Position numbers and translations under genes: made by a program | In this document: positions 269 through 52,470 of the stretch, piece by piece | How the letters are laid out: each line of letters starts with the position of its first letter | Position numbering within the stretch: the first letter of the stretch is position 1 | The notes under the pieces: model-generated | Database searches by the model: none | What the model saw: the letters and a program-made list of their open reading frames with translations, nothing else | Told to the model about the DNA's origin: nothing | Assembly: GCA_024137785.1 (NCBI GenBank) | Contig: JAHRHZ010000098.1 | Coordinates: 21,262,113 to 21,326,112 of the forward strand | DNA from: Ginglymostoma cirratum | Taxonomy: Eukaryota | Direction: 5' to 3' | Length of the DNA stretch: 64,000 nucleotides

Positions 269-2099
269 AAAAGTGGGGAAGTGGTGATAGGATTCCCGAA
301 CTGATTGTCAACCCATTGATCCAGTTCTTTAATTCTCCTTCAGTGGCCAAAAAGTCCTGATGTGGAACTTGAATTGGAGTTCATGGCCTAGAGTAGGTAC
401 ATTGCTATTGCACCGTAAGACTTCCACTAAAGTTAAATTGGTAATCGTTTTGTCCAACAGGCGAACCTATACAAACTTTTGCATGTGCTCAAAGTATTTT
501 ATTTAATAAATACCTTCCACCTGCATATTGTTCACATAACATCCATTAACAGCATGGAGCTGAAAGAGCCAGTGATGTGAGGTACAAGGAATAACAAATA
601 TCACCAAAGCAGTAATAACAAATAAGGACCAAAGCTGGAGGAGATCACTGAGGGAAGAATGCATTGAGAAATTTGAACTGTGTTTATTGGGGCACCAGAG
701 CTTGGTAAAAATATAGATGATGAACGTGAAAGACTTAACGCAAATTAATTTATAAAGTATAATTGTAATAGTTTTAGTGAAATTAATTTCTGTTTTTAAA
801 TCTATAGACTAGGGTTTTGTTGTAGTTGAGGAATAGGGTGAAATTCAAGCAACAATGCAAACATCCAGGATTAAAAAGCAGCTTTGGATGGAGGCAGGAT
901 GGAAGATCCGCTGGGTGTTGGGAAGGGTGCTGCCATTACCCAACACTAGATTTAGCTTGATAAGGTTTATGATTTCACTGGAAACTCCAAATGTGTGTCT
1001 CTTTTTGAGTGCATACACTAATTATTTGGTGCACTAATTTATTGTGACTCTGCATAACTCAGCAGCCACCTTAGCATTGTGTCAGAGAGGAATGGACAAC
1101 CTATAAATAAGTCGCAATCTGCTTCATTGTTCGAAATATTGTATGACTTTTTTTAAGTAGTTCTACTGCTACGCACTTCTGCTTTTCTGGAGATGAGCCT
1201 GTTTTCTTTCTCTCAAAAAGCCTAACTCTGGCTGCTTGACATAGATAACAGCAAGTCCATGCTCATATCTCAGTATCAGATTTTGGGTGGGGAAAATTTG
1301 TTCTTGAAGGGCTTATACAGTACCTACATCATCACTTGCCAATCTCCACCTCGTGACATTGGTGAGGGGGGGAGGTGGTGACACTAGGAGGAGGAAGAGA
1401 ATGAATAGTAGCCTATATAGCAGCCTGCAATCTATATGTTATTCTAGGCACTAATTTTTAATTTTTTCATGCTTGGGATGAAGGACAGGTGAATACATCA
1501 CTGCTGCTAATAAAAGGAGGGAAAATTGCACTAACAAAATTCCCGGGGAAGTGATGTGAAAATTGTTGAAATGGAAGGTCTCCAGGACAAGCTTAGTATA
1601 ATAAATACCTGTATTGTCACCCTGAGTTCTATTCCAGATTTTGTTTTAGTTTTGTATTACCATGAATTACAACAGTTGCATCAAAAGCAGGAATGAAATG
1701 AGGAGAAGAAACACATGAGCCACAAGGAGTCTGTTCATTTTGATTTGCTAAGTGATCATGAACTAAGTTTTATACTTTATATTTATGTACTTGCTAGTCA
1801 ACTCTGTTTTGAAGTTTCAGGGCATGGCACCTACCAACCACTGTTGCAATTAATTATATTATGAGATTTTTAAAAAATTATTTATAAGCTATATTGGTTC
1901 TTGGTATAGATGTATAAACATGTGAACTCTAAGAGCAGTTAACCTGGTCCCATGGTGTCATTGCTGCTGGTTTGATGATCTGTGCTTTCTCGTTGATGAG
2001 TTGGCATGCTTTGAGATGTGTGTGAATGAATCAGTGTTTTGAGCAGTACCACAATGTTACACCAGTATATAGCATTACTGGGCCATGTGGAAATCTAGT

Positions 2100-2450
2100 T
2101 TAGATTAGTATTGTACACTTAGTAATGGATATATTAATTGGGGGTACTAAAGATTATTAAAGACCTAGTCCAGATTTATTGTTTTGAGGAAATGGAAGAT
2201 AAAGTTTATGAGGTGGATAATGTGTGTATGGAGTTTGTAAGGTACTTGATAAGGTACAAAAGAGTAGCTATAAAAATCAAAGTACTGAAGGAAAAATAAC
2301 CACATACATAGAGAGATATTGGTAAAAGACAGAAAATGAAGAAGAGTAATTAATGTTCTTTAGACCGAATAGTTTTGTGGAGGCATGTGTCCCAGGGATC
2401 TGTGCAGGGACTTTTGTTTTCTATTTAGAAATTATTTGAATATTGACCGC
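2100..2450 (+). mobile_element. Highly decayed CR1 reverse-transcriptase fragment
   Basis: Remnants of CR1 RT motifs (FE.., VD.V.M.F.K..DKV, VSQGSV.G.LLF) with frameshifts. Confidence 0.5.
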
Positions 2451-2790
2451 AGCAACCTTATGCTGATGCCCCCAGGCCCACAGCTCCCCCATTCCCAATC
2501 TCCAGTGAAACCACGCATGCACAGAAAATAGGCGCGCAATTGAAACATTTCAGCATTTCAACAAATCTCATTCATTAGTGCACATGCAAACATTTCTTGA
2601 CAACAATATGCATGCCTCTCAGTGTCAGCAAACATGGCCTAATTTCACAGCAAGGAATTCATACCTGTTGTGAACTTTCTTTTGGGGGTAAGGAGTTCCT
2701 GCAATATGCAGGCGATCAGGAGTTAAGGAGTTGTTTACAAGTGAAGCTGATTTGGTTCTCAACTAAGTAAGTAAGTTTGAAGTGGAAACA

Positions 2791-3442
2791 TGTTACAGAG
2801 ACACAGAAACGCAGACAGAGAAAGACACAGAGGGTGTGCTATTGTGTTCCCTGGAAGAAGCTACCAGTTCTCTGCAGTAAAAAGGAAGAAAACCAGATAC
2901 CTTTCCTGCAACAATTGTTGAGAGCTGTGACTTTTGAATTCACAAAATCAGACATTTTCCAAGCAAATCGATTGCCCTGTACTTCTTTAAAAAACAGAGG
3001 AAGCTTGCAGAAAGGGAGAGTTGAACAGCAAGTGCTTGCAAATTGAAGAACAATCACCCCAACATCTGAAAGAAGATGCAGAGACCTCTGAACTGACTTT
3101 CTAGTTTTCTGTAGCTCTGCAATAATTTATTTTCCCTGTGTGTATGTTTAAGGGGGAGTTACTAAGGGGTTTTGAGTTTTAATTCGTAGCTAGTTCTAGT
3201 TCTAATTAATTAGTATACCAGTGTTTTATATCTTTTTACCTGCAGCAATAGTCTAATTGCTTACAATAAATAATAATTCTTGTTTAGTACTGAAACCTGG
3301 TCTGTGCTTTCTTCCAACCTTAGTTTGAAGCCAGGTAAATCAGGTAGGGTGCTTACCTTATTAAAAAAACCTTTTACGATTTGGTATGACTCCTGGAAAA
3401 GCAGGGCTTGATTTTACAGCATGCTACCAGTGGATTGTAACA
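2791..3442 (+). mobile_element. Candidate solo LTR
   Basis: Starts TGTTACA (2791) and ends TGTAACA (3442), perfect 7-bp inverted termini. 652 bp with an internal AATAAA near 3265. No intact TSD. Confidence 0.5.
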
Positions 3443-14456: not shown

Positions 14457-14684
14457 AGACCCTCTCCACCTATCCTCTCCTCTATCCATCCTCTATCCGC
14501 CTCCACCTTGCTCCCTATTTATTTCAGAACCCTCTTCCCCTCCCCCATTTCTGATGAAGGGTCTAGGCCCGAAACGTCAAGTTTTCCTGCTCCTATGATG
14601 CTGCTTGGCCTGCTGTGTTCATCCAGCCCCACGCCTTGTTATCTCGGATTCTCCAGCATCTGCAGTACCTTTTATCTCAGACCC
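14457..14684 (+). mobile_element. Penelope-like pLTR fragment
   Basis: Near-identical to 35805-35990. Candidate 6-bp TSD AGACCC at 14457-14462 and 14679-14684. Confidence 0.8.
14548..14581 (+). ncRNA. Minimal type I hammerhead ribozyme motif (intact core)
   Basis: ttt-CTGATGA(14551)-a-GGGT ctag GCCC-GAAAC-GTC^aag: conserved core, stem II, minimal stem III, GUC cleavage triplet and short stem I. Confidence 0.75.
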
Positions 14685-25790: not shown

Positions 25791-26806
25791 TTAAAAAGCT
25801 AACATTGGTTTTCTTTAAAGCATCAGGGTGAATGTCTCACCTCAAGAGTTTTGTTTTACAGGAGCTTTGTATCCTAATTGAATTTCCACAGTTTTCTTCC
25901 GCCTCATCCCCTCATTTTCTTCGATGTTCACTATGCCCATATGTGAGATTGTGGTCCAGGTCTGTCAATATATATGATTGACATTATTTGATTCGAACTA
26001 GAAAGCTTTATTGTATAGTTATCCCTGTCCTCCTACCCCACGCTACCAACAAATTCTTTATTTCCAACTCCAGTGTTCTCCCCACTAGCAAAGGGTACTT
26101 TATTAACGAGGGGAACCAAAATGCCAAACATAGCAATACAGCTCTTAACAAAAATACTGTGCTGTTTTGAATGCAGCAAGCTCATCACCTTGGTGTAAAA
26201 TGAGTTCTGTTCTTCCAAATGCTTCTGCATGGAGAATTTGGACATACTTGTACCACTGCTTCTCCATGTAAGTGTTTTTATTCTCGACAGGGTTTACAAA
26301 TCAAATGCAGAACTCAAGGTTAAGCCTTTCACAGTGAATAAAGGAGGAAAATCAGAAGCTGAGTAAAGCTAGGTGACTGCTGAACACTTGTTGCGAATGG
26401 ATACAAAACAGGATTAGTAAAAGTGTGGGCAAGGCTGGCCATTCGCCAGCTTTCTCAGCTGGTGATGTTGCTAAACTGGCTGGTACTGGATTTTCTTAAT
26501 AGCCCTTTTGTTTAACTTCTTTCAAATTCATGACAGAAAATTAACTATGTGCCAAAAAACACATTGAGAAGGGTGTTTTGGTTTGAGGATAAACAACCAT
26601 GGTACTTACTCATCATCCAAACAAAAAATCGAATTACCTGCACACTTCAAAGTTTTTTTCTTAAGATTAAATCACAATTTTATTCAAAAGGCTTTAGTCA
26701 CTCAGTCATAAAACGCGTTATAAATTCTGTAGTATTTTTAAGTGGAGGAGCACCAATTAAGTATTTTATAGTTGGATTTATTTATGAGTAAGCCTTAGTT
26801 CTTATA

Positions 26807-26940
26807 GTTCTGAGGAAGGGTCACCAGACCCAAAATGTTAAGTCTGATTTTTCTTCACAGATGCTGCCAGACCTGCTGAGGTTTTCCAGCAACTTTGTTT
26901 TTGTTCCTGATTTACAGCATCCATGGTTCTTTTGGTTTTC
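26807..26940 (+). mobile_element. Short Penelope-derived repeat starting with a degenerate hammerhead
   Basis: CTGAGGA(26810)-a-GGGTC acca GACCC-aaaat (GAAAC mutated), followed by cacagatgctgccagacctgctgag, which is shared with 27870 and 52381. Confidence 0.75.
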
Positions 26941-27704: not shown

Positions 27705-27927
27705 AAAACCGAAAGAACTGCGGATGCTGTAAATCAGGAACAAAAACAAAGTTGCTGGAAAAGCTCAGCAGGTCTGGCAGCGTCTGTGAAGGAGAAAACA
27801 GAGTTAGCATTTCGGGTCCAGTACTGAGGAAGGGTCACCAGACCTGAAACGCTAACTCCATTTTGCTTCACAGATGCTGCCAGACCTGCTGAGCTTTTCC
27901 AGTGACTTTGTTTTTGTTTCTGATTTT
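27705..27927. mobile_element. Fold-back (inverted-arm) Penelope-derived repeat
   Basis: About 27730-27820 is the reverse complement of about 27838-27927. Hammerhead-like CTGAGGA...GAAAC sits at 27824-27850 at the junction. Confidence 0.85.
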
Positions 27928-35118: not shown

Positions 35119-36007
35119 GCCATTAGCAGAAGTAATGTATCAGAGATCATAGGAACTGCAGATGCTGGAGAATCCGAGATAACAAGGTGTAGAGCTGGAT
35201 GAACACAGCAGGCCAAGCAGCGTCACAGGAGCAGGAAAGCTTGACGTTTCAGGACTAGACCCTTCATCTGAAATGGGGGAGGGGAAGAGGGTTCTGAAAT
35301 AAATAGGGAGGGGGGGAGGCGGATAGAAGATGGATAGAGAAGAGGATAGGTGGAGAGGAGACAGACAAGTCAAAGAGGCGGGGATGGAGCCAGTAAAGGT
35401 GAGTGTAGGTGGGGAGGTAGGGAGGAGACAGGTCAGTCCAGGGAGGACGGACAGGTCAAGGGGGCGGGATGAGATTAGTAGGTAGGAAATGGGGGGGTGC
35501 GGCTTGAGGTGGGAGGAGGGGATAGATGAGTGGAAGAACAGGTTAGGGAGGCGGGGACGAGCTTCAAAATCTCCCCTCCCCCTACCGCATCCCAAAACCA
35601 GCCCAGCTCGACCCGCCTCCCTAACCTGTTCTTCCACTCACCTATCCCCTCCTCCCACCTCAAGCCGCACCCCCCATTTCCTACCTACTAACCTCATCCC
35701 GCCCCCTTGACATGTCCGTCCTCCCTGGACTGACCTATCTCCTTCCTACCTCCCCACCTACACTCACCTTTACTGGCTCCATCCCCGCCTCTTTGACTTG
35801 TCTGTCTCCTCTCCACCTATCTTCTCCTCTATCCATCTTCTATCCGCCTCCCCCTCTCTCCCTATTTATTTCAGAACCCTCTTCCCCTCCCCCATTTCTG
35901 ATGAAGGGTCTCGGCCTGAAACGTCAAGCTTTCCTGCTCCTGTGACGCTGCTTGGCCTGCTGTGTTCATCCAGCTCTACATCTTGTTATCCCGCCATTAG
36001 CAGAAGT
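35119..36007. mobile_element. Young palindromic Penelope-like insertion with 15-bp TSD
   Basis: Arms 35178-35563 and 35605-35990 are near-perfect reverse complements. Direct repeat GCCATTAGCAGAAGT at 35119-35133 and 35993-36007. Confidence 0.92.
35895..35928 (+). ncRNA. Minimal hammerhead ribozyme motif (intact core)
   Basis: ttt-CTGATGA(35898)-agggtctcggcct-GAAAC(35918)-GTC^aag. Confidence 0.7.
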
Positions 36008-43456: not shown

Positions 43457-43554
43457 GAGATAACAAGGTGTAGGGCTGGATGAACACAGCAGGCCAAGCA
43501 GCATCAGAGGAGCAGGAAAACTGACGTTTCAGGCCTAGACCCTTCTTCAGAAAA
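43457..43554 (-). mobile_element. Short Penelope pLTR fragment with intact antisense hammerhead
   Basis: Same family as the 35 kb arms. Minus strand 43550-43523 reads CTGAAGA-agggtctaggcct-GAAAC-GTC. Confidence 0.85.
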
Positions 43555-44795: not shown

Positions 44796-44897
44796 TGCTC
44801 AAAACCGAAGCACAGTACTCCTTGCTCTGCAATTACAGAGATAAGGAAGTGTACTCAGCTCGAGACGCCAGACAACATAAACACTTTTGTCCTCAAG
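44796..44897 (+). CDS. SH2B3: SH2B3/LNK-like coding exon (equivalent to human exon 3), PH domain
   Basis: Polypyrimidine tract ...tttttcag| acceptor and aag|gtaaat donor; 102 bp, phase 0-0. Translates [34 protein letters not shown], close to recalled human SH2B3 SSRPKLQAACSSIQEVR(R/W)CTRLEMPDNLYTFVLK. The 'CT.LE.PDN..TFVLK' pattern favours SH2B3 over SH2B1/2. Confidence 0.95.
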
Positions 44898-52090: not shown

Positions 52091-52245
52091 GTAAGACTCA
52101 ATTTCTTCTTAGTTTTCCTTTTAACGTGTGAATGCTGAAAGTCCACATAATGGTACCAATATGATACTTGCACAGTTACATAAAAATTGAAGTTGAAAGT
52201 CAGATTTCTGGTACCTGGAATATTCTGTTCTATAAGTTACTTTTT

Positions 52246-52470
52246 CAAACAAAACCAGAAATTCCTGAAAATTTCAGCAGGTCTGGTAGCATCTGCGGAG
52301 AGAAAACAGAGAGAACTTCAGATTTAGAACTTCAGTTCAGAAGAGTCACTAGACCCAAAATGTTAACTCTGTTTTCTCTCCACAGATGCTGCCAGACCTG
52401 CTAAGATTTTCCAGTGATTTCTGTTTTTCTGTGATTTCAGATTTCCAGCATCGGCTGTTCTTTTTTTTTG
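52246..52470. mobile_element. Fold-back Penelope-derived repeat
   Basis: About 52257-52311 is inverted relative to about 52366-52423. Decayed hammerhead remnant (gaagagtcactagacccaaaatgttaac) in the loop. Confidence 0.8.

Follow-up and report, generated by a model that had tools for sequence, protein, structure and literature searches.

Inverted, two-armed layouts of Penelope-like elements (PLEs) have been described before (PMC8557442, PMC3846280, PMC2377424), and minimal hammerheads of metazoan PLEs also occur as opposite-strand pairs 100-700 bp apart (PMC4209133). In the closest described system, the EN+ PLE unit (Pen2a_Av, PMC3846280; PMC8557442 Fig. 2), an inverted copy lies head-to-head with a direct copy, a tail is found at one end only (a concept shared by PMC8557442, PMC3846280 and PMC11167929), the junction shows a short overlap and a TSD surrounds the whole unit. 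The formation of the inverted ends is called undefined in PMC8557442, which ascribes the tail to endonuclease resolution, and PMC3846280 explains palindromes at head-to-head junctions by self-priming on an antisense template. For Poseidon PAc of Anolis carolinensis, which carries a hammerhead near its pLTR end, the element's protein cuts both target strands and extends them, with two initiation sites, one at each boundary of the tail; the available part of that paper leaves inverted insertions untreated (PMC11167929).

The locus analysed here is a palindrome at 35119-36007 of a 64,000-nucleotide stretch of the Ginglymostoma cirratum genome (the window). It shares each of the above features of the EN+ PLE unit as set out in the available portions of those reports, and, in the reading preferred below, also the two initiation sites and two-strand extension of PAc, along with a hammerhead near the pLTR end (PMC11167929). 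It differs from the EN+ PLE units, in which the inverted copy is a 5'-truncated pLTR, in that truncation has cut both of its arms down to about 430 nt, and it has a 44-nt tail versus a published 30-40 nt and a 15-bp TSD versus 8-10 bp in rotifers (PMC3846280, PMC8557442). PAc belongs to Poseidon, whereas the family found here carries a C-x4-C-x2-C motif before the endonuclease, seen in translations of longer copies, which suggests Neptune, a clade marked by an additional Zn-finger-like motif between RT and EN, rather than Poseidon.

Anatomy and identity of the palindrome

We found that the ~810-bp palindrome with a 15-bp TSD put forward in the original prediction exists and represents a type of insertion already known, with arms, exact 15-mer flanks and AGCT turn all reproduced. 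The inverted arms (35178-35563 versus 35605-35990) are identical in 372 of 384 aligned columns, the differences amounting to 12 substitutions plus 5 single-base gaps, and the arm ends are unequal. The TSD, GCCATTAGCAGAAGT, is exact at 35119-35133 on the left and 35993-36007 on the right and extends no further; since it encloses the whole two-armed unit, the earlier reading of one insertion event is upheld. Two bases separate the right arm from the right TSD copy (35991-35992), and these may be untemplated or may be element bases with one change.

Comparison with family copies identified the left arm (35134-35563, minus strand, antisense to SH2B3) as the last 430 nt of a 5'-truncated element, including a 44-nt tail (35134-35177) that is present on this arm only and carries it 44 nt beyond the limit of the inverted repeat, to 35134. 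The right arm (35560-35990, plus strand, sense to SH2B3) is a tail-less, 431-nt 3' end of the same element, which begins 44 nt further 5' on the element and ends at the tail start. The 41 nt between the inverted arms (35564-35604, plus strand) had been called a spacer; they are indeed present, but consist of the last ORF codons of the element, continuous with the right arm and missing from the left, so that the two units run from 35134 to 35563 (minus) and from 35560 to 35990 (plus). Their head-to-head junction is an overlap of exactly 4 nt, the self-complementary AGCT at 35560-35563, which fits both arms as had been proposed.

Longer family copies run upstream, in one ORF, into coding sequence for reverse transcriptase (PF00078, RVT_1, 29.7 bits versus a cut-off of 29.6, locus L007) plus a GIY-YIG domain at the C terminus (PF01541, E 1.7e-4 and 2.6e-3 in L011 and L004, just under the curated Pfam cut-off). 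This combination marks the family as an EN+ PLE, supporting the Penelope-like origin first suggested, and the copies show the matching insertion habit, namely 5' truncation with an adjacent inverted copy, a one-end tail and a TSD around the unit. A Pfam search of six window ORFs gave no match, and truncation of both arms to about 430 nt has left no ORF in the palindrome. Partial tandem structure (pLTR followed by element body) occurred in 1 of 30 loci, L002, which continues past the tail into ORF-like sequence; its interval 1885-3423 reads from pLTR through tail to the element 5' part, where a long repeat region rich in Pro/Thr/Ala precedes the reverse transcriptase. A non-LTR retrozyme, which consists of tandem head-to-tail hammerhead repeats without a coding parent sequence, was rejected as an identity, the arms being head-to-head and plain truncations of a coding element.

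Frequency of head-to-head units

We then surveyed the shark's own genome with the left arm as query, which returned 6294 first-look candidates. We scored 40 of these and fetched 30; the fetched copies other than the locus itself are 93-95% identical. Among 29 other top copies, a set chosen for a long tailed arm, an inverted arm abuts the copy in 16 and lies across a gap in 2 more, while 4 extend beyond the fetched locus. A TSD of 12-17 nt was found at 10 of the 14 inverted loci examined, with one further 14-nt candidate excluded as element sequence. An unselected, contiguous, non-N sample of 642 kb around SH2B3 (one region of one contig, C98; units of at least 87% identity) contained 31 insertions, 12 of them head-to-head and 8 of these 12 with a 12-17-nt TSD. 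This corresponds to about one such hairpin per 54 kb, or roughly 80,000 palindromes genome-wide if this sample from one contig is typical. The head-to-head layout is thus a routine insertion product of this family, and, with a second palindrome in the same SH2B3 intron, the special status originally accorded to the arrangement is not borne out. The locus itself matters little, other than as a data point on how PLEs build inverted ends.

The 5' ends of many copies fall 95-99 nt ahead of the tail start, just a few bases 5' of the core of the hammerhead (the copy at 43457-43553 of the window and about ten arms in the 642 kb), which may reflect a truncation hot spot or an RNA start.

Origin of the inverted arms

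Our main reading, to which we give a probability of about 80%, is that one event placed two PLE 3' ends head-to-head at the locus, that these have since decayed, and that the insertion was likely two-strand-primed and is likely neutral for SH2B3. As judged from the geometry, the endonuclease would have nicked the two strands 15 nt apart, leaving two 3' ends. Priming of cDNA would have begun at the tail end on one of them (left arm) and, 44 nt further inward, at the tail start on the other (right arm); both cDNAs would stop after about 430 nt and then join at AGCT. Each arm has sequence absent from the other, indicating that neither was simply copied from the other as DNA. In the 642-kb sample, all 12 head-to-head units have exactly one tailed arm, an outcome with a probability of at most 0.5^12 by chance if the arms were independent, although in 3 of the 12 the partner arm ends 29-143 nt before reaching the tail start. 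At the selected loci, 11 of 12 partner arms lack the tail, and both arms of L009 carry one. Two-strand priming of reverse transcription, an ability that the anole protein possesses (PMC11167929), is favoured by the mutually exclusive arm sequence and by the single tail in 12 of 12 units.

As a general account, that shark Penelope palindromes record two-ended target-primed reverse transcription, with starts at the tail end and tail start on opposite strands of a 14-15-nt staggered cut, has in our estimate an even chance of being correct. If this is right, the published explanation of inverted pLTRs by self-priming would give way to one built on the one-tail rule and the mutually exclusive arm sequence, and the abundance of copies in the shark genome would let the question be tested by counting. 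Our literature search, limited to non-subscription papers, found no dual-priming account of PLE inversions. L1 twin priming also uses two primers at one staggered cut and produces a 5' inversion, as here, but twin-primed L1 segments do not duplicate one RNA stretch, whereas the shark arms overlap almost fully.

A distinctly less probable explanation, though one with published precedent, is that the same element formed its palindrome by fold-back or self-priming of the first cDNA or an antisense transcript at AGCT, after which the endonuclease trimmed one tail. AGCT is self-complementary and present in the element at both arm starts, and self-priming (PMC3846280) and an endonuclease-resolved tail (PMC8557442) have both been proposed. 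Plain fold-back on the first cDNA, however, cannot place a tail on the arm without the loop, and both geometries occur, the tail-less arm of the 642-kb units being 5'-longer in 8 of 12, shorter in 2 and equal in 2; in the units where it is longer, as at this locus, a plain copying of either arm from its partner is excluded. Most junctions also lack a palindromic overlap: across 25 junctions, only 3 overlap by at least 3 nt (a measure that later mutation can shrink) and 14 contain extra bases, so that joins like AGCT are not the rule. These junctions contradict palindromic microhomology as a general junction rule.

Allele sharing is compatible with either mechanism. The two arms have 6 non-majority alleles in common, including 2 rare ones, and the rate at which arm pairs share such alleles is 0.58% within a locus versus 0.17% between loci. 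This is what fold-back would produce, but it also fits two cDNAs from one source RNA or later conversion; the 6 shared alleles fit a single source under dual priming and self-priming alike. Four arm differences match alleles in 4-9 other copies. We do not claim two different templates for the two arms, the alleles not being cleanly linked and many sites being CpG.

Hammerhead motifs and the SH2B3 intron

The predicted location in an SH2B3 intron proved correct. The Phe-zipper exon, on the plus strand some 48 kb ahead of the window, has shark SH2B3 proteins as its best named homologues (top match 93% identical, Chiloscyllium punctatum), and the next SH2B3 coding exon, of the PH domain, lies at 44796-44897 (plus strand). 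These flanking exons place the insertion inside a 92-kb intron reaching from roughly 47.6 kb ahead of the window to 44795; the insertion sits 8.8 kb before the intron acceptor with its right arm in sense. The only other Phe-zipper exon found in the genome, at L032 on contig C153, belongs to a second SH2B paralogue, and a third was undetected in this search.

Further copies of the family are present in the same intron. A single tailed copy (14461-14681, plus strand) carries a sense hammerhead at 14551 without a local inverted arm, and a short copy (43457-43553, minus strand) is tail-less. A second head-to-head insertion, L037, lies on the same contig at about 21257970-21259111, beginning 4143 and ending 3001 bases ahead of the window. 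Its arms agree at 98% over 158 nt, its sense hammerhead is close to the family majority, and it has a candidate TSD of 17 nt. The hammerheads of L037 and of the 14461-14681 copy are both nearer to the family majority than is the right-arm motif of the palindrome.

That right-arm motif (35898-35925, plus strand) is a minimal type-I hammerhead with the core CTGATGA...GAAACGTC, and has the CUGANGA and GAAA core, NUH site and palindromic stem III region of minimal PLE hammerheads. The left-arm copy (35243-35270, minus strand, antisense in the pre-mRNA) does not have this set, its core being mutated to CAGATGA (CAGAUGA in RNA) exactly as first read. The right arm shares with the minimal metazoan PLE hammerheads, as far as the available part of PMC4209133 describes them, a type-I core, an unpaired base before stem II (here A), the lack of a stem III loop and a dimer-type palindrome, here ACGU in place of stem III. 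Its stems are shorter (3 bp for stem I and 3-4 bp for stem II, versus 4-5 and 7-8 bp in Schistosoma), and a further difference is the G-U pair closing stem II at 35906/35917 (PMC4209133), where the shark family has G-C. The word intact, applied to the core in the original prediction, holds for the core letters only, given the G-U closing pair, the 3 pairs possible in stem I and the replaced stem III. A U at position 11.1, a CpG site, is common to both arms and 8 of 38 other arms. Rfam at the gathering threshold gave no match in the window.

Folding the right-arm motif alone gave no favoured hammerhead (z +0.72 versus shuffles), and its active dimer was computed at +4.5 kcal/mol versus -23.1 for the best alternative, so that on computed energies stems I and II are not stable enough to permit the active dimer. 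The copy at 14551 is likewise disfavoured (-0.7 versus -33.8 kcal/mol), and dimer energies therefore do not separate live from dead motifs. Single minimal PLE hammerheads show no cleavage and dimers little (PMC4209133), dimer cleavage is the subject of PMC5785218, and the anole PLE hammerhead cleaves only with the element's protein (PMC11167929). A dimer-type minimal motif whose stem II is weakened and whose stem I has only 3 bp would probably have little activity to mask, and the decayed right-arm ribozyme is likely inactive, masked or not. We rejected a functional intronic ribozyme of the CPEB3 type, which is a single conserved locus, active as a monomer and affecting host mRNA, since the motif here has thousands of copies, is decayed and has no monomer fold.

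As anticipated, the plus strand of the palindrome is predicted to fold as one hairpin (-820 kcal/mol versus -328 for 20 shuffles, z = -83), giving a long duplex in nascent RNA. The arms of the nascent RNA would zip into this ~385-bp duplex and bury the hammerhead as a by-product. Because the upstream arm is transcribed first and could pair with the emerging right arm, the proposed masking of the ribozyme is physically plausible; the duplex is predicted to cover the motif, but the motif has no favoured active fold, alone or as a dimer, to be covered. Inverted Alu pairs in introns form duplexes too, and those are ADAR substrates, each pair being two separate insertions. If editing were shown, hairpins that arise in one event could contribute intronic dsRNA in sharks on a large scale, as a property of the Penelope-like family rather than of SH2B3.

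The element 3' region resembles the 3' half of an intron (window 35686-35874, plus strand) ending 23 nt before the hammerhead core, with a putative branch point, TACTAAC (35686-35692, plus strand; 19 of 30 copies), and a putative acceptor, TTTCAG after a pyrimidine tract (35869-35874, plus strand; all 30 copies). We found no donor site in the pLTR. In D. virilis Penelope an intron also ends at the hammerhead (PMC4209133).

That the hairpin is functional for SH2B3, by masking the ribozyme or a cryptic sense-arm acceptor or by tuning the gene through RNA that is edited or diced, is highly improbable. The duplex is predicted to be very stable, and TACTAAC, pyrimidine tract and TTTCAG of the sense arm would lie under it too. 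Against this, the same intron tolerates the unpaired sense copy with an acceptor-like site and a near-majority hammerhead (14551) as well as a second palindrome, similar hairpins recur at the frequency given above, the ribozyme fold is disfavoured, and the AG-free zone, as possible proof of an acceptor site, falls short of significance by itself (P 0.16). Each arm departs from the family majority at 13 sites, core or stem positions among them, giving no sign of preservation. A regulatory role of the hairpin for SH2B3 is unsupported, and nothing marks out this locus among others.

An assembly or fold-back read artefact has next to no chance of explaining the palindrome: long palindromes do trouble assemblies (PMC8557442), but the arms differ in sequence and have unequal ends, the flanking TSD is exact, and the same layout, each time with its own TSD, is found again at many loci.

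Two older palindromes of ~195 nt, from a related hammerhead-bearing family, lie in the window at 27731-27926 and 52245-52434, with a core in sense orientation at 27824; another related piece is found at 26806-26939.
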